Positions 8,211 to 44,423 of a stretch of 64,000 nt of DNA are shown here, in pieces. Every line of letters starts with the position of its first letter. Position 1 is the first letter of the stretch. Made by a program: the position numbers and the translations under genes. Source of the stretch: Escherichia coli. Lineage in GTDB: Bacteria; Pseudomonadota; Gammaproteobacteria; Enterobacterales; Enterobacteriaceae. The notes beneath the pieces are model-generated. The model saw only the letters and a program-made list of their open reading frames with translations, did no database searches and had not been told where the DNA came from. The DNA is taken from NCBI RefSeq assembly GCF_009931435.1, contig NZ_CP043414.1; one strand, 5' to 3'.

Positions 8211-8261
8211 CTAGTCAGGATGATGGTGATGATGGTGGTGTTTAAATTGAACGCGTGTCAT
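8211..8261 (-). CDS. hisL: his operon leader peptide (MTRVQFKHHHHHHHPD)
   Basis: Reverse complement of 8211-8261 translates to MTRVQFKHHHHHHHPD* with seven consecutive His codons. Confidence 0.9.
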   Translation of the reverse strand: MTRVQFKHHHHHHHPD

Positions 8262-9046: not shown

Positions 9047-9128
9047 ACAGATTCATTCATAGAATGAATTGTCAGTTTTGATACGCTAGCGTAGCCTTAT
9101 AGATCTAAGGTGTATCAGGAGATAACGG

Positions 9129-9953: not shown

Positions 9954-9998
9954 ACGATCACGCCAGCAGGACGCCGCATACACTGCAAGGGGGCGTGT

Positions 9999-10928: not shown

Positions 10929-11194
10929 AGAAAAATTATTATGACAAGCCTCTCATTCTCTTGTCATTTCCCCCCCATTTAGGCACAATGCGCCGCTGTC
11001 AAAAAATGACTAAAAACCGACGTTTAATTAGCGTCGGTTATTTTTTGCTTCAAACCAATCATTCATACCAAGAGGCCGGGCTTCGTACCGGATAGATATT
11101 TACTAAAAATCGACAGTTGTTGTCGCTGAGGAATCCAAAAAAATGGGGCAATTTTTTGCTTACGCGACGGTTATCACCGTAAAGGAGAATGACC

Positions 11195-12553
11195 ATGTCG
11201 CATAACGTTACTCCAAACACCTCTCGCGTGGAATTGCGTAAAACGCTTACGTTAGTTCCGGTTGTAATGATGGGTCTTGCCTATATGCAGCCGATGACGC
11301 TGTTTGATACATTTGGTATCGTTTCAGGCCTCACGGATGGTCATGTGCCGACAGCCTATGCGTTCGCATTGATTGCGATCCTGTTTACGGCTCTGAGCTA
11401 CGGGAAGCTGGTTCGCCGCTATCCTTCTGCTGGCTCTGCATACACTTACGCCCAGAAATCCATTAGCCCGACTGTCGGCTTTATGGTGGGTTGGTCTTCT
11501 CTGCTCGACTATCTGTTCGCGCCGATGATCAACATTCTGCTGGCGAAAATCTATTTTGAAGCTCTGGTGCCTTCCATCCCATCGTGGATGTTTGTGGTGG
11601 CGCTGGTGGCCTTTATGACCGCCTTTAACCTGCGTAGTCTGAAATCCGTAGCGAACTTCAACACTGTAATCGTCGTGTTGCAGGTAGTGCTGATCGCGGT
11701 GATTCTGGGCATGGTTGTTTATGGCGTATTTGAAGGTGAAGGCGCGGGTACGCTGGCGAGCACTCGTCCGTTCTGGTCTGGCGATGCGCATGTTATCCCG
11801 ATGATTACCGGGGCGACAATCCTGTGCTTCTCCTTTACCGGCTTTGACGGCATCAGCAACCTGTCGGAAGAAACCAAAGATGCAGAGCGCGTGATCCCGC
11901 GTGCGATTTTCCTGACCGCACTGATTGGCGGCATGATCTTCATCTTTGCAACTTACTTCCTGCAGCTGTACTTCCCGGATATCTCTCGCTTTAAAGATCC
12001 GGATGCGTCACAGCCTGAAATCATGCTGTACGTTGCGGGTAAAGCGTTCCAGGTTGGCGCGCTGATCTTCTCCACCATTACCGTACTGGCGTCCGGTATG
12101 GCGGCGCATGCAGGCGTAGCGCGTCTGATGTACGTAATGGGGCGTGACGGTGTGTTCCCGAAAAGCTTCTTCGGTTATGTACACCCGAAATGGCGTACTC
12201 CGGCAATGAACATCATCCTGGTTGGCGCGATTGCCCTGCTGGCAATCAACTTCGACCTGGTAATGGCTACGGCGCTGATTAACTTTGGTGCGCTGGTGGC
12301 GTTCACCTTCGTTAACCTGTCGGTTATTTCGCAGTTCTGGATCCGTGAGAAGCGTAACAAGACGCTGAAAGATCACTTCCAGTATCTGTTCCTACCGATG
12401 TGTGGTGCGCTGACCGTTGGTGCGCTGTGGGTTAACCTGGAAGAAAGCTCAATGGTTCTGGGTCTGATCTGGGCTGCTATCGGTCTGATTTACCTGGCTT
12501 GCGTAACCAAGAGTTTCCGTAATCCGGTTCCGCAGTACGAAGACGTAGCATAA
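11195..12553 (+). CDS. plaP: Putrescine importer PlaP (APC family amino acid/polyamine permease)
   Basis: 452 aa multi-TM permease from [11 protein letters not shown] start; conserved synteny upstream of yeeE. Confidence 0.85.
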
Positions 12554-19323: not shown

Positions 19324-19749
19324 TTAGCAACAGCCTTCTTCTGTATGCAGCAAGGCAAAAAGTTCTGTAACTCCATTGTTATTAACCGCACTGGTTACTA
19401 ACACGTTGTGCGCTCCAGCTTCCCGTAACCAACATTTCACCAAAGATATGTGTTCCATGCTGGCTAAATCTGCTTTGGTTACTACTCCAATGACCGGGTG
19501 ATTCATGGCCCGGTAGGGCGTTTTTACCTCTAATTCCTGCCTCAGCGCTGAGATTCCTGCTTGTTGCCGGAAAAGCATATAGATTTGCATAAGTATGCTC
19601 TTTCGTATAGCCAGAATGTGTCGGATTCTGGTTGAACAGATAACGTGCCCGTTGACTTCTTTCGGAAGTGAGATTGTCATATCTGACATACATGGTCGCC
19701 CCTGTTTGCCAAGTCCCCGTGTCAAAAAGTCATCTGTGTAAGATTCCAA
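19324..19749 (-). pseudogene. EutP/PduV-family GTPase C-terminal remnant (possibly yoeF-like); N-terminal P-loop half missing
   Basis: C-terminal half (VIGVVTKADLA...NVLVTSAVNNNGVTELFALL) resembles EutP/PduV; upstream part of ORF lacks P-loop. Confidence 0.4.
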
Positions 19750-19900
19750 TCATACATATGGACTCAGATTGGCCTGTGTCCGTGCTTCCTAAAGGAATTC
19801 ACAGATTTAGTCCTAATCATGATGACACATTAGCGAAGCTATGCCATGAACCGCCCCGGAAATCCTGGAGACTAAACTTCCTGAGAAAGAGGTAAACAGG

Positions 19901-20227
19901 ATGACTAAAAATACTCGTTTTTCCCCCGAAGTCCGTCAACGGGCAGTCCGTATGGTTCTGGAAAGTCAGAGCGAATATGACTCACAATGGGCGACAATTT
20001 GTTCCATTGCTCCAAAGATTGGCTGTACGCCGGAGACTCTGCGTGTCTGGGTTCGCCAGCATGAGCGGGATACCGGGGGCGGTGATGGAGGGCTCACCAC
20101 CGCTGAACGTCAGCGTCTGAAAGAGCTGGAACGTGAAAATCGTGAACTGCGCCGCAGTAACGATATCCTTCGCCAGGCTTCCGCTTATTTTGCGAAGGCG
20201 GAGTTCGACCGCCTCTGGAAAAAATGA
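19901..20227 (+). CDS. IS3-family transposase OrfA (HTH)
   Basis: 108 aa [21 protein letters not shown]...; A-rich slippery stretch (GGAAAAAATGA) at the orfA/orfB overlap. Confidence 0.85.
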
Positions 20228-20641
20228 TGCCACTGCTGGATAAGCTGCGTGAGCAGTACGGGGTCAGACCGGTATGCAGCGAACTGCATATTGCCCCGTC
20301 AACGTATTACCATTGTCAGCAACAGCGACATCATCCGGATAAACGCAGTGCCCGTGCGCAGCACGATGACTGGCTGAAGAAAGAGATACAGCGCGTATAC
20401 GATGAAAATCACCAGGTATACGGTGTGCGTAAAGTCTGGCGTCAGTTGTTACGGGAAGGTATCAGAGTGGCCAGATGCACTGTGGCACGTCTCATGGCGG
20501 TTATGGGACTTGCCGGTGTTCTCCGGGGTAAAAAGGTCCGTACGACCATCAGCCGGAAAGCCGTTGCCGCAGGCGACCGCGTAAACCGTCAGTTCGTGGC
20601 AGAACGACCTGACCAGCTGTGGGTGGCTGATTTTACTTACG
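20224..20641 (+). CDS. IS3-family transposase OrfB, 5' exon (upstream of intron)
   Basis: Reading frame matches IS3-family OrfB up to ...[10 protein letters not shown], then diverges at intron 5' end. Confidence 0.8.
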
Positions 20642-21297
20642 GTGTGCCCGGAGTTCAGGGCGGGCATGGATGCTTAAATGAACCGCGAGTCTGTCTGGAA
20701 TATTGAACCGGTAACTCACGATGAGAAACCCAACAATCCCACCGGGTGTGACGGTGGAGAACCTGAGCGGCAGTGACCTGCGGCATGCCCGCAGGGTGAT
20801 GTAACCCGCTGACAACGGGGATTGAGGCGAGATCACTAAGCCGAGATGATCCTCAAGGTTAAGTACTGAAAGGCTGAAGAACATGAACCCGTTAATCCGC
20901 CTCTGTGGGTTGAAAACGTCACCACGGCCTACGTGATCTGACAGGCCGTGCAGGAGGAACTGGCAGTGATACGTAAGCACTGCCGGTCGAAGGTGTTTTG
21001 ACATGTATGCGAAACACCGGGGCAGCAGCGTCTATCACGCTTGCGTTGCTGACTTCTGCCAACTTGCGGCAAGCAAGGATAAAGAGTGCGACGGGCAGCC
21101 TCCTCAGTATGCCTGAGTCCAGGCAGGTAAACCGGGGAAGGTCAGCGACGGATGTTAAGGGGGCATGGCTCCGATGACGCGCTGGCTGGCGGAGCTTCCG
21201 TAGTAGTCCGCGATGGGGAAAGCCCATTACATGGCGAAGGGAAGCAGTTTGAATGTGTTTGCGACGTGAATTAACTGACCTAACGAGGTGAAGACCT

Positions 21298-22821
21298 TTG
21301 ATAATCAGCGAAATGCAACGCAAGCTTGCCACATGGGCAGTCACCGATCCGTCCCTACGGATTCAACGGCTGCTGCGTCTGATAACACAACCAGAATGGC
21401 TGGCTGAAGCGGCGCGGATCACGCTTTCATCAAAGGGGGCCCATACCCCCGGCGTTGATGGCGTGAACAAAACAATGCTACAGGCCAGACTGGCTGTTGA
21501 GCTGCAAATCCTCAGGGATGAATTACTCTCAGGCCACTACCAGCCCTTGCCCGCCAGACGGGTTTACATCCCTAAAAGCAACGACAAACTGCGACCACTG
21601 GGTATCCCCGCGTTGCGGGATCGTATTGTTCAGCGGGCCATGCTGATGGCGATGGAGCCGATATGGGAGAGTGATTTTCATACGCTCTCATATGGCTTCC
21701 GGCCTGAGCGCAGTGTCCACCACGCTATCCGCACGGTGAAATTACAGCTCACAGACTGTGGTGAAACCCGGGGACGCTGGGTGATTGAAGGCGACCTGTC
21801 CAGTTACTTCGACACCGTACATCATCGACTGCTGATGAAGGCTGTACGCCGCAGGATCAGTGACGCACGTTTCATGACTCTGCTGTGGAAAACCATCAAG
21901 GCGGGACATATCGATGTCGGTCTCTTTCGGGCGGCCAGTGAAGGTGTGCCACAGGGCGGTGTTATATCGCCGCTATTATCGAACATCATGCTGAATGAGT
22001 TCGATCAATACCTGCATGAGCGCTACCTGAGCGGGAAAGCCAGAAAAGATCGGTGGTACTGGAATAACAGTATCCAACGGGGCCGAAGTACGGCGGTCAG
22101 AGAAAACTGGCAGTGGAAACCCGCGGTGGCGTACTGCCGCTATGCCGATGATTTTGTCCTCATCGTCAAAGGCACCAAAGCACAGGCGGAAGCCATCAGG
22201 GAGGAGTGTCGGGGTGTGCTCGAAGGCAGTCTGAAACTCAGGCTGAACATGGATAAGACTAAAATCACCCATGTTAATGACGGCTTTATCTTTCTGGGGC
22301 ACAGGATCATTCGCAAACGCAGTCGTTATGGCGAGATGCGAGTGGTCTCAACGATCCCGCAGGAGAAAGCCAGAAACTTCGCCGCATCGCTGACAGCACT
22401 GTTATCAGGCAACTACAGTGAAAGCAAAGTCGATATGGCTGAACAACTCAACCGAAAACTGAAAGGCTGGGCCATGTTCTATCAGTTCGTTGATTTTAAG
22501 GCCAAAGTCTTCAGTTATATCGACCGTGTCGTGTTCTGGAAGCTGGCTCACTGGCTGGCCCGCAAATACCGTACAGGTATCGCTTCCCTGATGAGGTGGT
22601 GGTGTAAATCACCGAAACCGGGTCAGAGCAAAACGTGGGTTTTATTTGGTAAAACCAATCACGGCAAGCTCAGCGGCGAAATACTGTACCGGTTGGTGGG
22701 GCAAGGCAAGAAGCTGTTCCGCTGGCGGCTACCCGAAGGTAATCCCTATCTGAGGACGGAGACCAGAAACACGTATACATCGCGCTTTACAGAAGTGGCA
22801 ATGGCGTTCGCCAGCATTTAA
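21298..22821 (+). CDS. Group II intron-encoded reverse transcriptase/maturase
   Basis: 507 aa; RT motifs (…RRVYIPK…LRPLGIP…, YADDFVL) followed by maturase X-like domain; located inside the intron. Confidence 0.85.
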   Translation: MIISEMQRKLATWAVTDPSLRIQRLLRLITQPEWLAEAARITLSSKGAHTPGVDGVNKTMLQARLAVELQILRDELLSGHYQPLPARRVYIPKSNDKLRPLGIPALRDRIVQRAMLMAMEPIWESDFHTLSYGFRPERSVHHAIRTVKLQLTDCGETRGRWVIEGDLSSYFDTVHHRLLMKAVRRRISDARFMTLLWKTIKAGHIDVGLFRAASEGVPQGGVISPLLSNIMLNEFDQYLHERYLSGKARKDRWYWNNSIQRGRSTAVRENWQWKPAVAYCRYADDFVLIVKGTKAQAEAIREECRGVLEGSLKLRLNMDKTKITHVNDGFIFLGHRIIRKRSRYGEMRVVSTIPQEKARNFAASLTALLSGNYSESKVDMAEQLNRKLKGWAMFYQFVDFKAKVFSYIDRVVFWKLAHWLARKYRTGIASLMRWWCKSPKPGQSKTWVLFGKTNHGKLSGEILYRLVGQGKKLFRWRLPEGNPYLRTETRNTYTSRFTEVAMAFASI

Positions 22822-22826
22822 ATGGA

Positions 22827-22860
22827 GAGCCGGATGCGCTGAAAGGTGCACGTCCGGTTC
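22827..22860 (+). ncRNA. Group II intron domain V (catalytic hairpin)
   Basis: GAGCCGGATGCGCTGAAAGGTGCACGTCCGGTTC: 34-nt hairpin with AGC triad and GAAA tetraloop, followed by domain VI with bulged A about 7 nt from the 3' splice site. Confidence 0.7.
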
Positions 22861-22883
22861 GGGGAGGAGAGGCAGGGAAATAG

Positions 22884-23384
<501 letters not shown>

Positions 23385-23542
23385 GTTCACAGATAAAACA
23401 CTCTCCAGGAAACCCGGGGCGGTTCACCATGTCAGATACAGGTTCACTTAGTCGCGGTCTTATCAGTCTGGCCTTTAATACTTGTTTATCCTTAGCAATC
23501 AGTAGGTTGGTTTTATTTTTCAACAGACAGAAGTAGTTTCAT

Positions 23543-24330
23543 TTACATATATGCAGCTACCATCACTTCTTCTGGTGAAATCTCTTTATCGTTGGTTAGC
23601 AATACCCAGAGCACTCTGGCATTTTTGTTGTTCAGCGCTACGGTGGCAACATTTTTATTCCGCCGCGAGACTGGTCTGCCCAGCCAACTTTCCTGGACCT
23701 GTCTGCCCTTTCTGGCGTTTGACACTGTCTTCGCACCATGGAACAGTAGCGTTCTGATATAGACATCGTCCCGTTTACTGATAGACCCCAGCGTGTTTTT
23801 ACCTACGCTGAAGCACTGTCGGGGAACCAGTCCAAGCCATGCAGCAAGCTGACGCCGGTTTTTGAAGCCGATACTACCCGGTGCTGACAATTGCAGTGGT
23901 GGTAAGAATAGCAATCCCCGAAATGGTGGCAATTTTCCTACACAGTTCGTCGTTCCCGACGTGTTCGTTGCTCACGGCTTCTATGGTTTCAATGTGTACG
24001 CTCAGTTGTTTCACATTTTCATTAGAGATAGGACGACAGCTGTCTGAACGGTATTGTTAAACAGTTTTCCGCGTCTTCAGGCAGGGCAGGGACATGACGA
24101 CTGAATGCTACAATGTCGGGCGGGAAAACGATGCCAAATTCAGCCAGTAATTCTCTGATCTGGTTTATCTGCGCAGCCCTTGATTTAACAAATCCCGTTT
24201 GGGCACGATGAAAAGACAGTAATGACTACTGCTCAGGCGTCTTGATGCTGACAAACTGCATATTAGGTCGGGTAACGGCTTCACAGATGGCCTCGGCAGC
24301 AGCCATATCATTCTTGTTTGTTTTCACATA
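23543..24330 (-). pseudogene. IS110-family transposase remnant (5'-truncated, internal stop)
   Basis: C-terminal domain FKNRRQLAAWLGLVPRQ…LGSISKRDDVYIRTLL typical of IS110/IS902 family; upstream frame contains stop and lacks N-terminal DEDD start. Confidence 0.6.
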
Positions 24331-24855
24331 TGGCTTTACAAATCGCGGGCATTAGTCTGACATTATGCCCCTAAGTAGACAGCATTCTCACTAATGACGC
24401 GCTCCGGCGCAGACCTCCATCCCAATCCGACAGGAAGACATATTCGCGAAGAATACGGGCATCAGGGAACGTTTAATCCGTTTTCTGAGCTTAGATTTTT
24501 CTGTTCCTACCCAGACCGTGGATTTGGAATTCATTTTTTGTCAGGTCAATGCTAATCGTTAAAACGGCCATAACGCACCTCCACTGGAAGGTTTATCAGT
24601 AATATCCTACCGTTGCTTCATGGTAGGGGCGTCCATTCCATTATTATCGGTTTTCCTTTCTGTTTATAAATGAAAACGCCAGCTGTATTCAGGCTGGCGT
24701 CAGGGGAAATGAAGCCTGTTGAGTGAGATTCACCGGTTCTGGTGCAGAAGCTGCAGATGGCGCAGGGTAAGGACATCTTCTCTTGCCTGCTTAATACAGG
24801 ACAACAGTGCTGTTTCTGTGGTTAATGGCACTATACCCTGTATCACTGCATTGTC

Positions 24856-26337: not shown

Positions 26338-26829
26338 TTAAAGCAGACCATGTTCGGCAAAGGAGAAAACCTGGCTGCCACCGACTATCAGATGGTCCGG
26401 CACCCGGATATCCACCAGGCCCAGTGCCTGTACCAGACGTTCCGTGATAAGGCGGTCTGCCTTGCTGGGTGTGACTTCACCGGACGGGTGATTGTGTGCC
26501 AGCACCACAGCAGCGGCATTGTGATACAGGGCGCGTTTAATCACTTCCCGGGGATGGACTTCCGTGCGGTTGATGGTGCCGGTGAAGAGGGTTTCACCGG
26601 CAATCAGCTGATTCTGGTTATTCAGATACAGCACCCGGAATTCTTCACGCTCCAGTCCCGCCATGTTCAGAATCAGCCATTCCCGTGCCGCACGGGTGGA
26701 GGTGAAGGCCACGCCGGGTTCATGAAGATGGCGGTCCAGGGTTTTCAGGGCCCGTTGAATGAGGCTGCGCTCACCGGGTGTCATCTCTCCGGGCAGAAAG
26801 GAAAGCTGCTGCATTGTCCCTGCCTCCAT
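26338..26829 (-). CDS. yeeS: RadC-like JAB-domain protein YeeS
   Basis: JAMM-type motif region (…VVLAHNHPSGEVTPSKADRLIT…); alternative start MQQLSF at 26814. Confidence 0.8.
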   Translation of the reverse strand: MEAGTMQQLSFLPGEMTPGERSLIQRALKTLDRHLHEPGVAFTSTRAAREWLILNMAGLEREEFRVLYLNNQNQLIAGETLFTGTINRTEVHPREVIKRALYHNAAAVVLAHNHPSGEVTPSKADRLITERLVQALGLVDIRVPDHLIVGGSQVFSFAEHGLL

Positions 26830-27315
26830 TCAGTCGATGATGCGCATAATGGCGCTGCATTCCGGATGCTGCAGGGCGTAATCCCGCAGCCGGTAATAAT
26901 GGACCGTCATGGCATAACACTCCGTACGACAGGCATGATGACTGTACGTCATCAGACAGGCAGCAATGCCAGCGGCTTCCGGGCTCATTTCAGCGCGGTT
27001 GCCGTTCATGGCATTGAACAGTACCCATGTTTCGTCATCATCGTCATCCGGTTCGGGTGCCATAAATGCCCCGCCGTTGTTCAGAGTGTACAGATTCCAG
27101 ATACCACCGCAGTAGTCTTCGCACAGACGGTCCATCCAGCCGAAAACACGGGGCTCCAGGGTCACCCACTGTGGAATGAGGCCAAAATGCTGCGGCCAGA
27201 AGCTGATGCGCTGTTCATCAGGGACTATGGTGGCAACCAGCTGAGGCTGGTCATTCCCTGATGCAGCGGTTACGGAAACAGAAGATGTGGTGGAATTATG
27301 TGAAATGGTTTTCAT
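26830..27315 (-). CDS. Antirestriction protein (ArdB/KlcA-like; YfjX/YafX family)
   Basis: 161 aa with acidic DDDDDETW stretch and family-typical C-terminal region; position upstream of radC-like gene. Confidence 0.75.
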   Translation of the reverse strand: MKTISHNSTTSSVSVTAASGNDQPQLVATIVPDEQRISFWPQHFGLIPQWVTLEPRVFGWMDRLCEDYCGGIWNLYTLNNGGAFMAPEPDDDDDETWVLFNAMNGNRAEMSPEAAGIAACLMTYSHHACRTECYAMTVHYYRLRDYALQHPECSAIMRIID

Positions 27316-27369
27316 GAAATGACTCCTTAAAGGACAAATAAATGCGTGGTTTTCAGGGTAATGGCTGAA

Positions 27370-28188
27370 TCAGCGCAGGCTCTCCAGCAGGGTTTCCGCC
27401 ATCACCCACAATGCGCGGTTGAGCTTAATGTCAGTGTCAATGCTGTGAATGGCACGGGTATGGATACGTTTTCCTTTAGCGCTGCGACCTGAAATTCCGC
27501 CTTTCAGCATATTCTCCTGAATGGTCTGATAAGCACTCCACAGGTCCTTACCGTAATCCTCCCGGCGTCGTGGCGTCAGAATGTCGGCGGTGGTGACGGG
27601 CTGATGTTCGTCACCATAACGGTAAGTCAGTGCCGCCTGTGCCAGCGCCTGGCGTGCCGGTGGCGGCAGAATCAGCGACTGCATGGCATCACGCTTTTCC
27701 TCAATCCGGTCAAAAACCCCCACCACCTCGTAAGCCCCTTCAATGACTCTGTCCACCACATTTCCCCGGTGCGGAACACGCACTTCCCCCAGAGACTGAC
27801 CACAGACGCATCCGTTCTGGCAGACGAACCTGAAGTAACCCGGCAGCATCTGGTAGCTGGAGGTACCGTCATGAGAGTTGAGCAGAATAATTTCAGGGAC
27901 ATGTTCTCCGTTTATCTCTCCGGCCCGCCGCAGACGCAGCATGTGTTTTGTGTATCCCCGGCGGCCCGGGTCGCGCACACGGGTCTGGCAGGCGAAGAAT
28001 GGCTGAAAGCCTTCCCGCTGCAGGCTTTCCAGTACGGTGATGGTGGGGATGTACGTATAGTTCTGGCTTCGGGACGTGTGTTTATCTTCCCCGAAAATCC
28101 CCGGCACATAGTGCATCAGTTCTTCGTGTGTCAGCGGACGGTCACGGCGTATCTGGTTCGCATAACCAAAACGACTGGCTAGTCGCAT
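27370..28188 (-). CDS. DUF932 domain protein (YafZ/YfjQ-like)
   Basis: 272 aa ORF in conserved island position; family assignment from recalled sequence features. Confidence 0.7.
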   Translation of the reverse strand: MRLASRFGYANQIRRDRPLTHEELMHYVPGIFGEDKHTSRSQNYTYIPTITVLESLQREGFQPFFACQTRVRDPGRRGYTKHMLRLRRAGEINGEHVPEIILLNSHDGTSSYQMLPGYFRFVCQNGCVCGQSLGEVRVPHRGNVVDRVIEGAYEVVGVFDRIEEKRDAMQSLILPPPARQALAQAALTYRYGDEHQPVTTADILTPRRREDYGKDLWSAYQTIQENMLKGGISGRSAKGKRIHTRAIHSIDTDIKLNRALWVMAETLLESLR

Positions 28189-28287
28189 AATTTGCTCCTT
28201 ATCGGTGGTTAAGATTTACTGGTGTAATAAATGAAAAAGCCACGTCTCCCGGAGAAGACGCGGCCTGATGGGTGAAATGAATGACGT

Positions 28288-28521
28288 TTATTGTCTGAGA
28301 AGACCGTCACTGGCGAGCCGCGTATTAAGCACCTTTCCGGCATCGGGTTCAGAATTCCGGCAGCGCCAGCGTCGCTGACCTTCCGCGTTGCGGATAACCC
28401 GACGGAAATGCATTCCCGGATCATCCTGGATAAACACATTGCGGTAAGCGGTTATGACAGCAACCGCCTGCCCGTATGAGAAAGATCCTTCAGCCAGGAC
28501 ATACTCTGTGTAACCCGGCAT
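28288..28521 (-). CDS. Small hypothetical protein (77 aa), possibly DUF905-like
   Basis: ORF only; fits a gap between DUF932 gene and downstream exported protein; weak support. Confidence 0.3.
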
Positions 28522-28599
28522 ATCTGTTTTCTCCTGATAAATAAAAAGCCTCTGCCACGCGTTGTGACAGAGGCTGAAGCATGAAACTGACTTCAGGGA

Positions 28600-29055
28600 T
28601 CAGTTAACGTTTTTTCCGGAAACGGTAATCAGCAGTGGATGGTAGTCCTGGGGATTGAAAACCGATAACGGCAGACTGACACGATGGCCGTTACTTTCTT
28701 CAGTTGCTTTAATGATTTCGGTTGTGGCGACATTTTCCACGCACTCCGTTTCCAGAAATGCGTCTGTGGTTCGCGTGGCATTACTGTCACCAAAAGCTTC
28801 CGTTTCCATTTTTCTGGTCACCAGCGTCTGACCATATTTGTCTTTGAGTTGCAGAGTGATGGTGAGGGGGCCAAATCCTTCATCGTTTCCGCCATTATCC
28901 AGCCGGAACTGGTAAGCACAAATATTTCCCGGGAGCCATATCGTATCTGTATTGCGTATACTGATGTAACGTTGATCCTGTGCCCGGAGTGGGGCAGACC
29001 ACGTTAACCCCAGAATGAAGGCGGTAATCATGCAGGTTTTGAACAGGTGAATCAT
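28600..29055 (-). CDS. Hypothetical exported protein (signal peptide, 151 aa)
   Basis: N-terminal hydrophobic signal sequence ending LRA|QD; RBS-like GAGAGG upstream. Confidence 0.5.
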   Translation of the reverse strand: MIHLFKTCMITAFILGLTWSAPLRAQDQRYISIRNTDTIWLPGNICAYQFRLDNGGNDEGFGPLTITLQLKDKYGQTLVTRKMETEAFGDSNATRTTDAFLETECVENVATTEIIKATEESNGHRVSLPLSVFNPQDYHPLLITVSGKNVN

Positions 29056-29130
29056 GGTATTTACCTCTCTGAGTCATGACGATGACACTGACAAATCAGG
29101 TGATAAAGCGTAAAAGGCGCAGAATAGCCG

Positions 29131-31653
29131 TTATGCCGGTAACTCCGGGGGTAATGCTTCTTCCAGTCGGTTAACCATATTGCCGAGATGGGATGCATCA
29201 TATTCCATGACGGGGCGTTGCCTGATGATACTGACCACCAGTGGTTTGATTAACATATTGGTCGCGGCCCGTTGTTGTATACCGGCGGCGAAAATGATCT
29301 CCAGAGCATTCTGATCGATAACACGGGCCAGATTCTCGTTCAGATTTTCAATCTCATGTCCGGTCAGCAGGAAACTGCCGGCAAGCCATGTCACCTGCTC
29401 CTGAATCATTGCCAGAATTTTGACGCGATCTTCTTCAACCAGCGCTCCGGCAATTTTTCCTGATACAGCGGAGGCAATCATTCCCCCCAGAACACCGCCA
29501 ACCACACGCCCTGTCAGTGCACCAAATGGTCCCAGTGGACTGAACAGTATCCCGCCCGCCACTGACCCGACAGCTCCACCTGCCACACCGGAAGATGCCA
29601 CGGCAAGATTCCTGATGAACTGCGCACCGGAGATCCGTCCCCGCAACATTTTGATCATGTCAGGGCCGGTTGTGACAGCTACCAGTGCCAGAGATGTCAC
29701 CAGCGTACCCTTCATTACTTTGTTCAGGGCACTGATATTTCCTGCACCGGTCCCCTTCTGAAGAGCCAGTCGGACAGTCGGGCTGGCAGTCGAAAAATCA
29801 ATGTGCTTCAGCATACCCTGAACAACACTGAGCCGGTGGAGTTGCTGGGTTGTGACGTAGACAGCCAGTGTGCGGGTGAAGGTTTTTCCTGCCTGGACAG
29901 CAGCTGTCTGCAGGGCAGCATCGCGATCGCCGGTGCTGAGCCAGAAGACCGATGCCGTCAGGGCAAAACTGATCCCTCCGGCCGCCAGACTGACAACCGA
30001 ACCCTCGGCAATATCATAAGTGACCGATTCGATGGTCCCGAACCGGGTGATATTACGGGCCTGAGTATAAGTCAGATGTCCCCGACGAATCAGCCGGGAC
30101 GCTTCTGCGGGATCGGTTACACCGGGTACTTTACCTTCGCGGATCTTATTCCTCATGGTTTCAACAGCGCCGGCATACTGATCACGGGGGACTTCCAGTT
30201 GCATGGGGCCATTATTTCCCATGTAACGATACTGTCCGTTTTGTCCGTCGAATGCCGCACCGACGCTACGGGCTGCAGTTGAACAATATTTCGTCTGGAT
30301 TTCTGTTCCGCTGACCAGCCTGTCTGCTCCATTTCTGGCATTATTATCACCGAGGATCCGTGCGTTTTTCAGACGGACTCTGTCGACAATATGGTTTCCC
30401 CGTTCAGCGGCAAACCCATGTCCCTGCCCTCCGGAAGCAAACATTTTCTCATTTGTACTCCAGGTTTCCGGCAGTTTCATGAGAATCAGACCATTCGCCG
30501 TTGCATCGGAAATAAAGCTGTTGTAAGGGCGTTCATAAATTTCCTGACACAGTGTTTCTGTTTCGCGACAAAGAGAGGAGCAGTACCATTCCGGATCCGG
30601 CTTATGATTTTCCGGGGCATGATGTACTTCTGTCAGCCCGCAGGAGGCACAGATACGAAGCTCATCCACGTGATGGAATGATACAAAACGGCGACCTTCT
30701 GAAAAGGGATACCAGTCACCGCCGTCCAGGCAACGATCGAGAAAATCGTCATTTGCTTCCGGTGATAAATTCAGGCGGTTCCGGAAGAGCGTTTTCAGTT
30801 CATCAGGTGTGAATGACAGGTTCTCTTTCAACTGTTCGTTAAACCCTGCCATGTTTCTTTCATACCAGGCATTGTTCAGTAACCAGTTTCCGTCTGCCAG
30901 TTCAAATTCCCTCAGCTCTCCCCGGGAAATCCGTTGAGAAATGAGCGTCAGCCAGATGCGCTCCGTCAGTGAGTCAGGAAGGCTGTAATCGTTTTGCAAA
31001 CTGGTCAGCCACGATTTACTGTTGAGCACCGGTTGTTCTTCCAGTGTCTGGCTGATGGCACAGGTCAGTTTTTTCAGCGCCTGGATCTGGCTGGCCGCCC
31101 ATAGCAGCGTCACTAATGCAGCCAGCCAGTACAACAACCCGCCCCACCACATCAGTGACGGTGAAATATCGTACTGTAACGCGATCAATGGTGCGCATGC
31201 AGAACACGCCATAAGGAAAAAGGCAGTATAAAAACAGCAGTAATACCCGTTAATTTCCTTGCTGATATCTTCTGGTGTGATCCCGTTCTGCTGAATGTTT
31301 TTGATCTGCAGGGGAACAGCCAGCAGACCACCGGCGAGAGCGGTGGTCAGAATAAATTTCACAGAGTCAAAGGTGCGAGCCTCCAGCGCGATATGTTTAC
31401 CATCAAGTCCCCACATGAAGCTGATGATCATTCCGGCAATCGTCAGAAATACGCCTGCCAGCCAGCGAATATGGAACAACCGGGTTATGCGTTCGGTGAT
31501 ATAGCCAGCCAGTAAGGCCGGGCCGAACAGACACAGCAATATGAGCCCTGCCAGCGCAGAAGCCGTGCTGATTAATGCTCTGAACAAAAGGCGAAGAATG
31601 GCAAATCCTGCGATCAGCAGGATCAGCGCGCCGACTATCTGTAACATAGTCAC
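29131..31653 (-). CDS. yeeR: YeeR-like inner membrane protein (840 aa) with C-terminal glycine-zipper region
   Basis: Multiple N-terminal TM segments; C-terminal G/A-rich zipper-like segments; located between flu and the antirestriction/DUF932 cluster. Confidence 0.65.
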   Translation of the reverse strand: MTMLQIVGALILLIAGFAILRLLFRALISTASALAGLILLCLFGPALLAGYITERITRLFHIRWLAGVFLTIAGMIISFMWGLDGKHIALEARTFDSVKFILTTALAGGLLAVPLQIKNIQQNGITPEDISKEINGYYCCFYTAFFLMACSACAPLIALQYDISPSLMWWGGLLYWLAALVTLLWAASQIQALKKLTCAISQTLEEQPVLNSKSWLTSLQNDYSLPDSLTERIWLTLISQRISRGELREFELADGNWLLNNAWYERNMAGFNEQLKENLSFTPDELKTLFRNRLNLSPEANDDFLDRCLDGGDWYPFSEGRRFVSFHHVDELRICASCGLTEVHHAPENHKPDPEWYCSSLCRETETLCQEIYERPYNSFISDATANGLILMKLPETWSTNEKMFASGGQGHGFAAERGNHIVDRVRLKNARILGDNNARNGADRLVSGTEIQTKYCSTAARSVGAAFDGQNGQYRYMGNNGPMQLEVPRDQYAGAVETMRNKIREGKVPGVTDPAEASRLIRRGHLTYTQARNITRFGTIESVTYDIAEGSVVSLAAGGISFALTASVFWLSTGDRDAALQTAAVQAGKTFTRTLAVYVTTQQLHRLSVVQGMLKHIDFSTASPTVRLALQKGTGAGNISALNKVMKGTLVTSLALVAVTTGPDMIKMLRGRISGAQFIRNLAVASSGVAGGAVGSVAGGILFSPLGPFGALTGRVVGGVLGGMIASAVSGKIAGALVEEDRVKILAMIQEQVTWLAGSFLLTGHEIENLNENLARVIDQNALEIIFAAGIQQRAATNMLIKPLVVSIIRQRPVMEYDASHLGNMVNRLEEALPPELPA

Positions 31654-31767
31654 TCCGTGATGAATATCATGTTATTGTTAATGCCAGCGAATGTGGCGTT
31701 GAAGATCCGTTGCGCCGGTCCGGGTCCCGGTCATGATGACCGGGACCACAGAGAGGCGATGGTTCTG

Positions 31768-34700
31768 TCAGAAGGTCACATTCAGTGTGGCCTGACCGTT
31801 ATACCCTTCAGCGCTGCTGCCGCTGACGCTGTGGGCATAACCGGCCTGAACGCCCAGGGTGATATTTTCCCGGACACGGGCTTCCAGTCCGGCCTGCAGG
31901 TCCAGTGATGTGCCATTCTGTGAGGGAGAGAACGTCATCCCGCTGCCTGCAGTGGAAGTCCCCACACGCATATCTCCCCGGGAGCTGAAGGTGCGGATAA
32001 CAGAAGGCTGTACCCACCAGTTCACCGGTAATTCACTCACACTGTGTTTTGCACTGTCACGCAGGGGGGCACGGGATGAGGTGCCTTCGCCAAAGGTCAT
32101 ATCGTTGTGGCTGCCCAGACGGAAACCGGCACGCACATGTTGTGCACTGCCATGCCCGAACTTCACATAACCGGCGTTGTCCTTACCGTCATCCAGGGAA
32201 AGTCCCTGCCAGGTATACTGCAGTTGTGGCTCCAGCATCAGGTTGTCAGTGATACTGAAGGGCAGACCGGTTTCCAGTGAGCCCAGCCAGCCCCAGCCCC
32301 GGGCGCGGAAGTCGTTATTGTCCGATGACGCTTTCATGCTGTGGCGGGTTCCCTGTGCCACAATGTCAGCCCACAGGCCGGAGGACGTGTGTGTCAGATT
32401 CAGGTATCCGCCCAGGCTGCCGGCATCATCCCGGACCGTGCCGGCACGGGAGCCGTCATCATCCTTAACATCAACGGAAGAATGGCCAGCAGCACCATAT
32501 ACCCCCGCGGTCACAGACATACCGGCAACCTCTGTTCTCATCAGGTCACCCTCCAGACGGACGAATCCATAGCTGCCGCTGCTTTCCGGCGTGGCCCCAC
32601 GGGCAATACCGCCATTGTTATCGTGACCGAGATGACCGCCCTGAATGCTGAGACGGACGCTGTTGTTTTCACCATTTACACCGGTCTGATGGCTGCGGGA
32701 GCCTGCCACAATCCGGTCATAGTCCATTGCCTGTGTCAGCATGGAGGCATACAGGGGGACTTCTGCACGATAAGCATTTTCACTGCGCAGATACCAGCTC
32801 TCACCACTGTCCCGGTTGAGGGAGTAGTTAAAGGCACCGGCCTGCAGCCTGTTCCCCTGGACAAAGGCCCCTTCCTCCGTGGTGGCACCGTTAATGGCTT
32901 CCACCACCTGAATACCCTTACCGCTGGTCGCCAGCCCCGACGCACTGTTGCCGGCGTTCACCAGGTTCAGGATGGTTTTTCCGGTTGCCCTGCCGCCGTC
33001 AATGACCAGTCTGTCAGCATTGTTCTGTGCCATATCCGGGCGTACACGCAGGCTGATGGTGCCATTCTGTCCGTTCAGGTTTTTCACTTTCAGGGTTGCC
33101 GGTACGAACTTCCCTGTGCGGGTGGAGGTGAAATGAATCTGTCCGGCATGGCTGAGGTCATCCACCACCGACTGCACCGTGGCGTTATCGGGGATATTCC
33201 AGGTGGCACCGGAGGCGAGAGTGACATTCGTGGGGTCAATGGCACCGTTCAGCACAGTGCTGCCGGTCAGCTTCAGGGCTGTACCGCGCTGAGCAATGAC
33301 ATCCGTGGTGACGGTACTGTCGTTCAGCGTCAGCGTGCCTTCATTCAGGTTGACGGCTTTCTGGGTGAGTGTGGTGTTGCTGACAGTGAGTGTGCCACTT
33401 CCTGATTTTTCCACGCTGCCGTTACCGGTGAGAGAGCCTCCCTGCAGGAGTGCATCGCCTTCACGGATGGTCAGGGTATCGTTGTTCACCGTCTTCCCGG
33501 AAAGGGTAAGTATGGCGCCGTTATTCAGCGTGGTGGTGCCCGCCAGTGTGCCGCCCCTGGCGGTGAACAGTCCGCCATTTACCGTGGTATCCGTGGCCGT
33601 ATCACCGGCGTTCAGCGTGAATGAACTGCCTTTTTCCAGCATCAGGGCATCCGCCTGACCGCCTCCGATACTGAATGCCTTTCCGTCGCTCCGGGTACCA
33701 CTGACAGCGGCACCGGAATCGGCCAGCAGTACACCGCCATTTCCCATGGATACGGTGGTGGCGGTACCACCGTTGCGGACATCCAGCGTTCCGCCATCAT
33801 CCACGCGGGTATTAGTGGCTGTGTGTCCGGTCAGCACATCCAGGCGTCCGCCATTTTCCAGTACGACATTATCAGCTTTACCCTCCACAACCGAGAATGC
33901 TCCAAGGCGGTTTATGCCGGTAACGGTTGCAGCCGTACTGGTAACCAGTGCGCCGCCCTGCTTCAGGGTGACATTCGTGGCTGTACCACCGGCGTCCACC
34001 TGCAGTCTGCCCTTCTGATTAACGGTGGTATTCCCGGCCACACCCCCGTTTTTGACAATCTGCCAGCCGTCACTGTTCACAACAGTGTCAGACGCTGTAC
34101 CGCCGTTGTGCACATACTGGTATCCCCCATTCAGCGTGGTATCCAGTGCGTGACCATGTACAGTCTGGTCGCCGCCGGCATAAACCACAGTGGTATTTGC
34201 CGTTCCTTCAGTTCTCACAATCTGGCGACCGTTTTTATTGATGGTTGTGCGTACGGCATCCCCGCGAACAAACTGCCCGGTATCACCGTTTTCTGCATCC
34301 GGTCCCCCTTCCGCCCCGGTATTAACAACGGTATCCGTTGCCACTGTACCGGGCTTGACGACCTGCCAGCCCTTATCATTAATGACGGTTCCTGTGGCTA
34401 TCGCCCCCTCATGCATCCACTGTTCGCCACCATTCAGCGTGGTGTTCACTGCCCGTCCCTGAAGGCTCTGTCCGCCTCCGGCACTGATAACCGTGTCTGA
34501 GACACTTCCACCGGGGTTCACTCTCTGAAGACCACCACTGGTGACAGTCGTTTTGTTGGCTGTTCCGCCATCCTGTACCCATTGCCCGCCGGTATTGGCC
34601 TCGTTATCCGGCCCATACTCCAGCCCGGTACTGATGGTCATTCCGTTGGTCGTACCGAAGACAATCTGGTTGTCATGATTTTCCAGTGTTCCGCCGTTCA

Positions 34701-34887
34701 CGGTTTCACCTGCCTGTACAATACTGTCAGCAGCCAGGGCCGGGACTGACGTGACAGCAGCAAGAGACAGAGCAACCGCCACACCGGCGCCTTTTCCCCG
34801 TGAGCGGGCCAGTTCGGAGGCCACCACCAGGGTGCCCGTAATGTGATTCCATACCAGCCTGTAGCTGGTGTTCAGATGTCGTTTCAT
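31768..34887 (-). CDS. flu: Antigen 43 autotransporter adhesin (self-associating autotransporter)
   Basis: 1039 aa from MKRHLNTSYRLVWNHITGTLVVASELA extended signal peptide; repetitive beta-helix passenger; C-terminal beta-barrel ending …ATLNVTF. Confidence 0.9.
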   Translation of the reverse strand: MKRHLNTSYRLVWNHITGTLVVASELARSRGKGAGVAVALSLAAVTSVPALAADSIVQAGETVNGGTLENHDNQIVFGTTNGMTISTGLEYGPDNEANTGGQWVQDGGTANKTTVTSGGLQRVNPGGSVSDTVISAGGGQSLQGRAVNTTLNGGEQWMHEGAIATGTVINDKGWQVVKPGTVATDTVVNTGAEGGPDAENGDTGQFVRGDAVRTTINKNGRQIVRTEGTANTTVVYAGGDQTVHGHALDTTLNGGYQYVHNGGTASDTVVNSDGWQIVKNGGVAGNTTVNQKGRLQVDAGGTATNVTLKQGGALVTSTAATVTGINRLGAFSVVEGKADNVVLENGGRLDVLTGHTATNTRVDDGGTLDVRNGGTATTVSMGNGGVLLADSGAAVSGTRSDGKAFSIGGGQADALMLEKGSSFTLNAGDTATDTTVNGGLFTARGGTLAGTTTLNNGAILTLSGKTVNNDTLTIREGDALLQGGSLTGNGSVEKSGSGTLTVSNTTLTQKAVNLNEGTLTLNDSTVTTDVIAQRGTALKLTGSTVLNGAIDPTNVTLASGATWNIPDNATVQSVVDDLSHAGQIHFTSTRTGKFVPATLKVKNLNGQNGTISLRVRPDMAQNNADRLVIDGGRATGKTILNLVNAGNSASGLATSGKGIQVVEAINGATTEEGAFVQGNRLQAGAFNYSLNRDSGESWYLRSENAYRAEVPLYASMLTQAMDYDRIVAGSRSHQTGVNGENNSVRLSIQGGHLGHDNNGGIARGATPESSGSYGFVRLEGDLMRTEVAGMSVTAGVYGAAGHSSVDVKDDDGSRAGTVRDDAGSLGGYLNLTHTSSGLWADIVAQGTRHSMKASSDNNDFRARGWGWLGSLETGLPFSITDNLMLEPQLQYTWQGLSLDDGKDNAGYVKFGHGSAQHVRAGFRLGSHNDMTFGEGTSSRAPLRDSAKHSVSELPVNWWVQPSVIRTFSSRGDMRVGTSTAGSGMTFSPSQNGTSLDLQAGLEARVRENITLGVQAGYAHSVSGSSAEGYNGQATLNVTF

Positions 34888-35069
34888 CAGCTTTTCCTTA
34901 GATTGAGGGTGAATAAAAAAGCCGGTACCCACAAACGTGGATACCGGCAGGTAAAGGGTTACAGTGCCGGAGGTCCGGCTGTGGGAGTTTCTGAATTGTG
35001 GTTCTGTTGTTCCCTGAATGTCTTTCTGTACGTATCTGTGCATGTTACTGACAAAGGTTATTATTAGCT

Positions 35070-40017: not shown

Positions 40018-41727
40018 GAGAATGTTCCTCCGGATGTTGTTAAACCAGCCGGTGTGGTCATGAAAACAACGCACCACCTTCACCGGCATAACAACCGGGG
40101 AGAAACGTAAAAAATAATCGGGAATGTGACCGCCAGGAGATAAACGGGGAGGTTACGGTGGCTGAGCCGTACCGGTATGCCGGGTGGTTGTTACGAAACG
40201 ATGCTTCCGCACGCGCGCGCGATAAAGAAGGGATGATTTTCGTGAGGAAGAGGGGAAAACTGGCGTTCTGATAATTGCAGAGTTATTTACGGGGCGGTTA
40301 CGATGGGGCAGACCGTGTCCGGTGGGCAGGCGACAGGTATCACCGATGGGATAAGACTGTCTGATTGGTATTATAAATATATAAGAGAGATCAAACACAT
40401 GAGATCAAATACATGAGTTCATATATGTGAAATAAACACGGTGAGTGTGATCAGTGGGCATGATGAGAACGCAGTAGCAACAGACTGCGCTATCCCTGAT
40501 AGCTGGCGTATAACCTGCGTATATAAAACGTACCAGCAACGCACGTGAACAGAGTGCATTAAGCATCCGTCGTTGACACCGACCTGGTGAGTGACAGTCT
40601 GAGAGACCGGTTAAGTGGTGGTACGGGAGTAATGAGTTTGGGGTGGGTACCAGAATGCCAGTCTGGCGGTATGCTGACAGTATCACGTTAATTGCAGCAT
40701 AAAGTGATGAGAGGCTAATGGAAGTTAAAACCAGAGCAGTTCCGTCGTTGTTCATCCCGGGAGACGCTGGAAAAAGTGATTTCCCACACGCGTTATAAGC
40801 TTACTCCAGCGGAGATGGAAGCCTTCAACTCTGCGGTCGATCACCGACTGGCAGAACTGACAATGAACAAGCTTTACGATCGTGTTCCCGCTTCAGTCTG
40901 GAAATATGTCATCTGAGCGTTCGGTAATCACAACTGCATCGCGCCAGGTGTTATCCGCTTTGTGATTCTTATTGGCTCTTCTCAGGTTATTAAAAGCTGA
41001 ATATGTTCCTGTTGTCGGGAACCAGGATAATACCGGGAGCGTTAAGCGGTATAGCGACAACAAAGAATTCGAAATCAAAAGGGAATGGTGCCGGAGGCGT
41101 GGGCGGTAATAGGCTGATTTTCAGGTATTACCGGCTTACAACGTGTGGTTGATATTGAGGGGCTGTGAGTTTCGCGTATTTGTCAGAAACCCAGATGAGT
41201 TTTCCTGTATGGGACGAAATAAGGCAGCGGCAATACCTGGAAAATTTAATATGGTATGAAGGAGAACCTGTCGGTTACGCTTAATATACACGGTACACTG
41301 TCAGCTCAGGGGATACATGAACCGTTATCTCACCAGCTACACAGTATACACACACTGACGCTGACAGTAGTCAGCAGGACCACAATAATCAGCGCCAGCA
41401 GTATGGTAACGATACGGTCTGTATTCCGGTAGTAGCCGAAGGGGTCGACAGAACCACAATACGGGCAACACACTGTATTATTAGTAATCGCGTTTCCACA
41501 GTCCCTGCACTTCTTTTGCGTATCACCATAACTCCCTCCTCACAGCCTTACCCGTAACCGGTTTTTTACATTAAAAAACAACGCTGAAAATTCAACCGTC
41601 AGTCCGGAGACGACCGTTCGGGTTATCACAGAGTGCCTGAGACAGTGTCCTGCCGGAGGTCACTTCAGGGACTCTGCGCATTTTTTACGACGTGGCTATT
41701 CCGTATGAACCATACGGAGATTTAACC

Positions 41728-42297
41728 ATGACCTACAAATACAACCCCTTCTGGCAGCAACGTATTCGTGAGACGGTGCGGCACGCACTGAATGTTCATC
41801 CCCGCCTGACGGCATTGCGGGTTGACCTGCGTCTCCCGGATGTACCGGCAGCAACGGACGCAGCTGTGATATCCCGCTTCATCAATGCCCTGAAAGCCCG
41901 AATCGACGCTTACCAGAAACGTAAGCATCGGGAAGGTAAACGCGTGCATCCCACCACCCTGCATTACGTCTGGGCCCGGGAGTTTGGGGAGTTCAAAGGT
42001 AAAAAACACTATCACCTGATGCTGCTGGTCAACCGGGATACCTGGTGTCGTGCCGGTGATTACCGCGCTCCGGAGTCTCTGGCCGGGATGATTAAACAGG
42101 CGTGGTGCAGTGCCCTGGGAGTGGATGTCGGGTGCCATGCCACGCTGGTGCATTTTCCGGCCTGGCCGGCGGTGTGGCTGGCGCGTAATGATGACACCGG
42201 CTTTCAGCAGGTGCTGGAACGTGCTAACTATCTGGCGAAGGAGCATACCAAAGCTCACTGCACCGGTGAGCGCAACTTTGGCTGCAGTCGTGGCTGA
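41728..42297 (+). CDS. YagK/YfjJ-family protein (inovirus Gp2-like domain)
   Basis: 189 aa from MTYKYNPFWQQRIRE with GGAG RBS; family assignment from recalled features. Confidence 0.55.
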   Translation: MTYKYNPFWQQRIRETVRHALNVHPRLTALRVDLRLPDVPAATDAAVISRFINALKARIDAYQKRKHREGKRVHPTTLHYVWAREFGEFKGKKHYHLMLLVNRDTWCRAGDYRAPESLAGMIKQAWCSALGVDVGCHATLVHFPAWPAVWLARNDDTGFQQVLERANYLAKEHTKAHCTGERNFGCSRG

Positions 42298-42462
42298 GCC
42301 AGACAGACGAGTTATCTGACTTCAGTGTGATGACGTGTTCACGGCCACCACACTGATTTTCCCTTATGAGACTGAACTGAAACCGCCATTCACACCTGAC
42401 CACGCTGCCCGTACCGGGACGGCTGTTGCCTGCGTGTCGTCTGACGGTAAGGAACATATACT

Positions 42463-42855
42463 ATGTACGCAAAATCCTTTCTCGCTCTTGATGGCAACGG
42501 ACGTCTGACGGGCGCCCGTACAGCACAGGCCGCACCTTATGCTCACTACACCTGCCACTTGTGTGGCAGTGCACTCAGATACCATCCGCAATACGACACT
42601 GAACTTCCCTGGTTTGAACACACTGACGACAGGCTGACAGAGCACGGTCAACAGTGCCCTTATGTCAGGCCGGAGCGCAGAGAAATACAGTTGATTAAAC
42701 GTCTGCAGCAATTCGTACCGGATGCCTTACCCGTGGTGCGTAAAGCCAGCTGGCACTGCAGACAATGTCACCACGATTATTATGGGGAGCGGTACTGCAC
42801 ACACTGCCAGACCGGAGGTTTCAGTCTTCCCCGGACAGCTCAGCAACTGTCTTGA
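42463..42855 (+). CDS. Zinc-ribbon protein with CxxC…PWFEH motif (paralog 1)
   Basis: 130 aa; CHLCGSAL…LPWFEH…WHCRQCHHDYYGERYCTHC; paralogous to ORF at 44019-44423. Confidence 0.55.
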   Translation: MYAKSFLALDGNGRLTGARTAQAAPYAHYTCHLCGSALRYHPQYDTELPWFEHTDDRLTEHGQQCPYVRPERREIQLIKRLQQFVPDALPVVRKASWHCRQCHHDYYGERYCTHCQTGGFSLPRTAQQLS

Positions 42856-44018: not shown

Positions 44019-44423
44019 ATGCGAATTCTGAACTGCTATATGGCGAATGACAGCAAAGGCCATTTTGTTACGGCGAAAGAAGCCGCGAAGAACAACCGAC
44101 AGGACGTTTTGTGCTGTGTGTCCTGTGGTTGTCCGTTAACACTTAAGCGGGGCAATGACGGACAACCGCCGTGGTTTGAACATGACCAGATGACTGTTGC
44201 TGCGAAAATCCTGCTGCGATGCACCTGGCTTGACCCGGCAGAGAAAGAGGCCCGTCGTTTGCATCTGCAGGGCATGACGGTTCCGGATTATACGGTGAAG
44301 GTGAGAAAGTGGTTTTGTGTGATGTGTGACGAAGATTATGAGGGGGAAAAGTGCTGCCCGCGTTGTGGTACCGGGGTATACAGCAGGGATAGGGGGGCTG
44401 CAGGAGGGCAACTGGAAGGATAG
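44019..44423 (+). CDS. Zinc-ribbon protein with CxxC…PWFEH motif (paralog 2)
   Basis: 134 aa; CVSCGCPL…PPWFEH…WFCVMCDEDYEGEKCCPRC; strong AGGAGG RBS. Confidence 0.55.
   Translation: MRILNCYMANDSKGHFVTAKEAAKNNRQDVLCCVSCGCPLTLKRGNDGQPPWFEHDQMTVAAKILLRCTWLDPAEKEARRLHLQGMTVPDYTVKVRKWFCVMCDEDYEGEKCCPRCGTGVYSRDRGAAGGQLEG

Follow-up and report, generated by a model that had tools for sequence, protein, structure and literature searches.

The subject of this analysis is yeeR, a minus-strand gene in a 64,000-nucleotide stretch of Escherichia coli DNA (contig NZ_CP043414.1 of assembly GCF_009931435.1; hereafter the window), where it lies between agn43, encoding the Ag43 autotransporter (31768..34887, minus strand), and irmA (28600..29055, minus strand; PF18673), the upstream and downstream genes of the published agn43-yeeR-irmA transcription unit. 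The maximal yeeR open reading frame (ORF) in the ORF listing of the window spans 29131..31653 and comprises 840 codons from a GTG plus a stop, exactly the interval for which an initial reading made from the letters alone (hereafter the sequence-only reading) had described a YeeR-like membrane protein. We find that this ORF represents intact yeeR on a CP4-44-type island, that its product couples a probable nuclease-fold domain to a conserved glycine-zipper domain, and that this core is, as judged by profile comparison, a distant homologue of the PADLOC defence candidate PDC-M09B, features from which we develop below a tentative hypothesis of function.

Evaluating the gene boundaries, we found that the sequence 5' of the yeeR start reads ...CACGGAGTGACTATGTTA..., that a GGAG at 31656-31653 overlaps the GTG and sits 5 nt upstream of an ATG at 31647, and that the RefSeq/PGAP coding sequence (WP_001474400.1, 838 aa) also begins at this ATG; because of this placement and the RefSeq/PGAP start, the coding sequence is likely 29131-31647 (minus strand) with an 838-aa product, while residue numbers here are counted from the GTG (840-codon frame), as in the sequence-only reading. 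A precomputed hit to Pfam PF27347 (YeeR_C) exists for the exact 838-aa protein and for relatives, and our local Pfam copy (older than PF27347), NCBIfam and PHROGs returned nothing above threshold for YeeR. In the assembly collection, 753 indexed blocks contain the identical protein, 1,800 of 5,426 complete E. coli genomes cover at least 80% of the gene, and homologues form 1,196 clusters at E<=1e-3 in an exhaustive HMMER search, so the ORF is far beyond chance occurrence. The gene ranks among the commonest uncharacterised accessory genes of E. coli and is intact in about one third of complete genomes; pathogens often carry it in duplicate, and it is expressed together with the phase-variable adhesin Ag43. 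The literature terms its product "the uncharacterized YeeR protein" (PMC4807369), in agreement with the sequence-only reading that its function is unknown. Searches of the literature on PF27347, on PDC-M09 and on yeeR with phage and defense found nothing relevant, DefensePredictor makes no mention of yeeR, and no domain-level reading of YeeR was found in the literature searched. The finding as first written is not new, because the gene, its K-12 truncation (published 2016 and 2019) and the Pfam YeeR_C family are already known; what appears to be added to the searchable literature is the E/D/QxK/E nuclease-fold core, the zinc knuckle, the winged-helix units, the PDC-M09B homology and the defence-island contexts, each of them a computational result.

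Comparison with K-12 accounts for the length of the window gene. K-12-type genomes match yeeR over bases 1-1527 only (99.8% nucleotide identity) and at the same chromosomal site, sharing with the window the flank tmaR-yeeA-sbmC-dacD and also agn43, whose product we take to be functional in K-12. In a K-12-like record yeeR encodes 510 aa and directly overlaps yeeS, and blastn of the K-12-like locus (L001) against the window left a clean 3,336-bp gap at window 26791-30126, with L001 position 7527 corresponding to window 30127 and L001 position 7530 to window 26790. This deletion joins yeeR codon 509 to yeeS, such that YeeR residues 510-840, irmA, a DUF905 gene, a DUF932 gene, an antirestriction gene and the first yeeS codons are missing from the K-12-type CP4-44. 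The expectation of the sequence-only reading, that the protein is YeeR-like, that its K-12 copy is shorter and that the window may hold the intact form, was therefore borne out, K-12 YeeR being neither equally long nor characterised. Both the MG1655 deletion disrupting yeeR (PMC4807369) and the truncated state of K-12 yeeR (PMC6480617) had been reported. The window represents the same CP4-44 site in an enterotoxigenic E. coli (ETEC)-type strain and is 100% identical over 24 kb to NZ_LR883000.1. The K-12 stump is unlikely to represent native YeeR function, and its presence in the standard laboratory strain may help explain the lack of a known function for yeeR.

To describe the anatomy of the intact protein, we used an AlphaFold (AF2) model built from a 138-sequence alignment, with a mean predicted local distance difference test score (pLDDT) of 86.6. 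A PD-(D/E)xK (restriction-endonuclease-like) domain at residues 406-540 (30034..30438, minus strand) was first hypothesised from the conservation pattern, which has a Glu in helix 1, an Asp at strand 2 and a Q-x-K in strand 3. In the model, residues 411-535 form a compact alpha/beta domain (pLDDT 94-98) with the alpha-beta-beta-beta-alpha-beta core that defines the PD-(D/E)xK superfamily, and E417 in helix 1, D444 at the start of strand 2 and Q453-x-K455 in strand 3 occupy the canonical positions of a putative active site completed by E487/D491. E417, D444, Q453, K455 and E487 are invariant in 136-138 of 138 diverse relatives. Foldseek with the domain-only model ranked CdiA-CT, PspGI, Hjc, EcoT38I and MspJI at the top but at E>0.5, the full-length model had no significant match in the PDB, and sequence and profile searches of PDB sequences found no YeeR relative; L7Ae and Hsp70 matches in the PDB searches were rejected as noise. 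We regard the PD-(D/E)xK fold assignment as probable. Catalysis is uncertain because Gln replaces the usual acidic residue before the Lys; QxK variants are found in active enzymes such as TnsA, and the invariant E487 might compensate for Q453.

Directly following the nuclease-fold domain, residues 541-739 (29437..30033, minus strand) form a hydrophobic helical domain with a glycine zipper, as seen in hydropathy, in the long hydrophobic AF2 helices at 541-735 and in the relatives. Borderline transmembrane (TM) segments lie at 551-572, 646-662 and 683-735, and across the 138 relatives the segments 541-575, 640-672 and 676-740 have a median best 19-residue hydropathy of 1.56-1.69. The zipper itself, rich in Gly and Ala, spans residues ~680-735, with G693, G696, G700, G715 and G719 each at least 90% conserved, and glycine-zipper triplets are universal among the 138 relatives (median 8.5 per protein). 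The sequence-only reading had placed this segment at the C-terminus; the zipper is real and family-wide, but it does not form the extreme C-terminus, as ~100 helical residues follow it in a C-terminal domain (residues 740-840; 29134..29436, minus strand) that shows conservation including an invariant R813 and has AF2 helices of pLDDT 76-93 resolved at 740-833. About 70 of the 138 relatives are without an N-terminal TM helix, and in these the hydrophobic domain is the only candidate membrane anchor. The glycine-zipper region may be inserted in the membrane, peripheral to it or a soluble bundle. Weak C19orf12 and tape-measure matches were set aside as reflecting glycine-zipper composition and not homology.

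The properties of these two domains raise an alternative that we consider unlikely, namely that the nuclease fold is a non-catalytic sensor or binding module and that the glycine-zipper helices are an effector that, once activated, forms a pore and depolarises the membrane in abortive infection. It would accommodate the Gln at the acidic position of the (D/E)xK motif, a zipper as conserved as the putative active site, the core-only relatives with no other membrane anchor and the weak similarity to glycine-zipper membrane proteins; against it, the joint invariance of E417, D444, K455 and E487 is more typical of a metal-binding active site, and no pore-forming family was significantly matched.

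The N-terminal half of YeeR begins with a membrane domain (residues 3-192; 31078..31647, minus strand) in which hydropathy and AF2 (helices of pLDDT 80-97) agree on six TM helices, at about 4-24, 31-52, 63-83, 97-117, 138-160 and 166-190, as expected from the N-terminal TM cluster that the sequence-only reading had noticed. This domain is present in the 820-850-aa proteobacterial relatives and not in most other relatives. It is followed by two winged-helix-like alpha/beta units (residues 207-331; 30661..31035, minus strand) with the AF2 strand (S) and helix (H) orders S-H-H-S-S and H-H-H-S-S. The only high-probability local Foldseek matches of the full model were tandem winged-helix proteins (ESCRT-II, SelB, STIV F93), at probability 0.96-0.98 but E 0.2-0.5 and with no aligned query region reported; these matches presumably belong to residues 207-331. 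Next comes a four-Cys region (residues 332-372; 30538..30660, minus strand) with short AF2 strands, where the pattern C335-x2-C338 ... C358-x3-C362 is kept in 51-52 of the 52-53 full-length relatives with a residue at these positions and where C369 is also common; we model this CxxC...CxxxC pattern as a zinc-ribbon-like knuckle of putative metal ligands, from which a long AF2 helix at residues 373-405 leads into the nuclease fold. The Cys-rich stretch and the large soluble middle region described earlier from the sequence are thus both present, the latter now modelled as two winged-helix-like units, a Cys knuckle and a restriction-endonuclease-like domain. The even TM count and the kinds of domain present lead us to predict that residues 200-545 are cytoplasmic.

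Having outlined the domains, we evaluated how they are distributed among relatives. Full-length relatives of ~820-850 aa align end to end at 31-53% identity, whereas most other relatives align to residues ~400-820 only and carry variable extensions (Sel1 or TPR repeats, or none). Scanning a single genome for each species recovered 319 encoding loci in Proteobacteria, Firmicutes, Lentisphaerae, Riflebacteria and Campylobacter. Phages and true plasmids almost entirely lack the family (1 of 50,697 phage records; few true plasmids), and a phage or plasmid origin of YeeR was rejected on these counts. PADLOC returned partial weak PDC-M09B matches at E 6e-6 (residues 578-733) and 5e-5 (residues 436-499), which do not amount to a full-length match, a true M09B scoring E 1e-214 on the same model. 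Comparing profile with profile, hhalign aligned YeeR 442-725 with PDC-M09B 109-395 over 262 columns (probability 94.9%, E 4.5e-8), such that the hydrophobic domain of YeeR corresponds to PDC-M09B residues ~250-395; pairwise BLASTP and profile searches against a single PDC-M09B sequence were not significant, the profile-profile comparison alone being so. We interpret the YeeR core, on this sequence-profile evidence, as a distant homologue of PDC-M09B and not as a member of PDC-M09. Within the window no ORF matches the M09B profile, and no gene of the M09A kind is annotated beside yeeR, M09A itself not having been searched for.

Neighbourhoods of the relatives include several loci with clear defence-system adjacency (L003, L006, L008, L017, L010, L016 and L028, plus assorted PADLOC matches). 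A Herbaspirillum relative adjoins the Azaca genes ZacB/ZacC, and in Pseudomonas WN033 YeeR adjoins PD-Lambda-4_A with two PD-T4-6-like kinases nearby. Short forms lie near MADS, Mokosh, pAgo-SIR2 and PDC-S01 genes, one of them overlapping a SIR2-TPR gene, and WYL regulators stand upstream in 14 loci, 11 of them short-form and the others L006, L008 and L017. In these last three (L006, an Enterobacter metagenome-assembled genome, at 5574-11341; L008, also Enterobacter; and L017, Serratia) we observed a same-strand string of a WYL/WCX regulator, PDC-M09A (E 1e-119), PDC-M09B (E 1e-214) and full-length YeeR with gaps of at most 40 nt, which places the genes of two distantly homologous proteins of the nuclease-fold/glycine-zipper type in direct succession; in those genomes a third component may be missed by PADLOC's two-gene definition of PDC-M09. 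A recurrent partner at position +1 is a Sel1/TPR protein, a repeat type that is fused to YeeR_C elsewhere. A kinase partner was rejected, as the kinase-like +1 cluster is this Sel1/TPR-repeat family, which a kinase had entered through single-linkage clustering.

Other observations concern the short forms in particular. On a metagenome contig (L003, 830-9431), a 476-aa core-only YeeR_C directly follows a type III-B Cmr cassette (Cmr2/Cas10, RAMPs, Cmr5) and cas2, an adjacency that reflects either chance or a CRISPR-ancillary use of the YeeR_C module. In Firmicutes, a conserved protein of ~118 aa with no Pfam or PADLOC match occupies position +1 of short-form YeeR_C in nine loci (L004, L021, L037, L043, L045, L046, L064, L070, L074), and one of ~113 aa, likewise conserved and with no Pfam or PADLOC match, occupies -1 or -2 in nine others (L026, L035, L036, L041, L068, L071, L077, L080, L083); both could be partner or immunity-like proteins. 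TerB-domain proteins stand at -1 in three further YeeR_C loci.

On the basis of this anatomy and these neighbourhoods we propose, at somewhat short of an even chance, that YeeR is tethered to the membrane and targets nucleic acid as a conflict protein directed at phage or other foreign DNA. In this proposal, which builds on the observed anatomy, conservation, PDC-M09B homology and neighbourhoods and adds to them a catalysis, a target and a defence phenotype, YeeR would reside in the inner membrane with its six N-terminal TM helices as a tether and its large soluble part presumably in the cytoplasm; nucleic acid bound at the membrane's inner face by the winged-helix and zinc elements would be cleaved by the PD-(D/E)xK-like domain, and the glycine-zipper helices would anchor or oligomerise YeeR in the membrane and might permeabilise it. 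Several observations weigh against this. The third catalytic position is an invariant Gln (Q453) and not Asp or Glu, which makes catalysis uncertain; the topology relies on the even TM count and domain logic, given a weak positive-inside signal; and the C-terminal hydrophobic helices are only borderline TM and could form a soluble bundle. Many neighbours are ordinary genes (TonB receptors, LysR regulators), and the neighbourhood evidence is uncontrolled and anecdotal. At the E. coli locus no defence partner was recognised, the neighbours being an adhesin, IrmA and genes of a kind found in the leading regions of conjugative elements; PDC-M09, for its part, is an untested candidate (Payne et al. 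2024, bioRxiv 10.1101/2024.01.29.577857). Beyond anatomy and homology nothing is established, and the structural scores are modest.

An extended form of the proposal, which we hold to be improbable as a whole, is that YeeR_C and PDC-M09B make up an unrecognised defence superfamily coupling a restriction-endonuclease fold to a glycine-zipper membrane domain, and that its E. coli form, tethered by six TM helices and equipped with winged-helix and zinc-ribbon DNA-binding elements, attacks phage or plasmid DNA entering at the inner membrane. Since Dam/OxyR phase variation governs the transcript that yeeR shares with agn43, roughly one third of E. coli strains would then possess a phase-variable immunity switch with a link to aggregation. 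Were the defence reading true, a membrane-tethered nuclease family would be added to the defence repertoire, PADLOC's PDC-M09 candidate would gain support and phase-variable surface behaviour would be tied to immunity; were it to fail, yeeR would stay an ordinary island-borne membrane protein. A very common E. coli accessory gene gains a testable hypothesis, and the domain reading offers handles for it in E417, D444, K455, the glycine zipper and a soluble 200-545 fragment.

The neighbourhoods also bear on two readings without an anti-phage role. YeeR might act in the DNA biology of the island that carries it, for instance in entry exclusion, membrane-associated DNA processing or maintenance, a reading that we rate as somewhat more doubtful than a sensor coupled to a pore. 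E. coli yeeR lies just upstream of genes for DUF932, an antirestriction protein, RadC/YeeS and the CbtA/CbeA pair, which we take to resemble leading-region genes of conjugative elements, and YeeR has DNA-binding-like and nuclease-like domains; this synteny is, however, restricted to E. coli-type islands, the genes around full-length relatives in Pseudomonas, Bordetella, Herbaspirillum and Vibrio are unrelated to it, and the family's near absence from true plasmids and phages speaks against it as well. Slightly less probable again is that YeeR has no conflict role and is a membrane stress or housekeeping protein, its nuclease-like fold a relic and its defence neighbours coincidental, as the weak structural scores, the many ordinary neighbours and the uncontrolled neighbourhood enrichment would allow. 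Against this reading stand traits typical of conflict genes: the family is patchily distributed over the phyla and has variable N-terminal fusions, the gene lies in an island and often decays in E. coli, and relatives have WYL regulators and adjoin PDC-M09A/B on the same strand.

That YeeR is an accessory for Ag43/IrmA biogenesis or for surface and biofilm behaviour, as might be suggested by the co-transcription of agn43-yeeR-irmA under OxyR control in EC958/CFT073 (PMC4807369) and by the conservation and joint duplication of the trio in E. coli (also PMC6480617), is very unlikely given that IrmA is released without YeeR or Ag43 (PMC4807369), that irmA has its own promoter in strain 042 (PMC9431211), that K-12 keeps an intact agn43 next to a truncated yeeR, that homologues outside Enterobacteriaceae have no Ag43 or IrmA neighbour and that cytoplasmic nucleic-acid-type domains are ill-suited to a secretion helper.

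Within the transcription unit itself, the maximal agn43 ORF (31768-35043, 1,091 codons) is 52 codons longer at its 5' end than annotated Ag43 (1,039 aa), the excess being probably just in-frame upstream sequence. At 31723-31747, some 20 nt downstream of the agn43 stop codon, the agn43-yeeR spacer contains a perfect inverted repeat of 12 bp (GGTCCCGGTCAT-C-ATGACCGGGACC); it is not followed by a T-run, a scan of 28950-31900 found no terminator-like site, and the repeat could be an mRNA-stability or attenuation hairpin within the agn43-yeeR-irmA transcript. Elsewhere in the island, window 19578-24471 holds about 5 kb of extra mobile DNA relative to the K-12 CP4-44 end, comprising an IS629 fragment split by a group II intron (ltrA reverse transcriptase/maturase, about 21313-22821), another IS3 fragment and an IS110 transposase. 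An additional Hha/YmoA-family gene lies at ~40767-40916, consistent with the reported correlation of extra hha copies with the yeeR-irmA cluster (PMC6480617). At the far island end, an inovirus Gp2-family gene (~41728-42855) and two small zinc-ribbon-protein genes (~44019-44423) lie among IS110, ISL3, IS30 and IS4 fragments, before cobU-cobS-cobT; the left part of the island is heavily decayed.

Several known systems and proteins can be set beside YeeR. Glycine-zipper membrane proteins (C19orf12-like, YMGG/SlyB type and phage tape-measure segments) have the repeated (G/A/S)xxxGxxx(G/A/S) pattern in hydrophobic helices that is found in YeeR, but the matches are weak and compositional with no significant family, and the YeeR zipper is part of a conserved module of ~420 aa. 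The TM-linked PD-(D/E)xK effectors of type III CRISPR systems (PADLOC "CARF_PDDEXK_TM") likewise combine a nuclease fold with a membrane segment, whereas no CARF or other nucleotide-sensing domain was detected in YeeR and its single CRISPR locus is possibly due to chance. With PD-(D/E)xK nucleases (Hjc resolvase, HamA of Hachiman, CdiA-CT of B. pseudomallei, MspJI, NucS) YeeR would have in common the alpha-beta-beta-beta core, the helix-1 Glu, the Asp at strand 2 and the x-K in strand 3, at low structural scores and with no sequence similarity; it differs in having Gln for Asp/Glu before the Lys and, unlike them, embeds this domain between a membrane anchor and a glycine-zipper domain. PDC-M09B (PADLOC candidate, ~483 aa) has nuclease-fold strands and a glycine-rich helical domain homologous to those of YeeR, and both carry the motifs HG..AE and D...G..(I/V)Q(S/T)K(F/Y), but the two are about 16% identical, PDC-M09B has no Pfam YeeR_C and none of YeeR's six-TM, winged-helix and zinc-ribbon N-terminus, and it is paired with M09A. 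Finally, K-12 YeeR (b2001, 510 aa, CP4-44) is the same gene at the same site and covers residues 3-509 in the present numbering; this deletion product ends within the nuclease-fold domain at residue 509 plus three foreign residues, retaining E417 to Y493 and losing the invariant D547 and everything after it, including the entire glycine-zipper domain and the C-terminal helices, all of which the intact form possesses.

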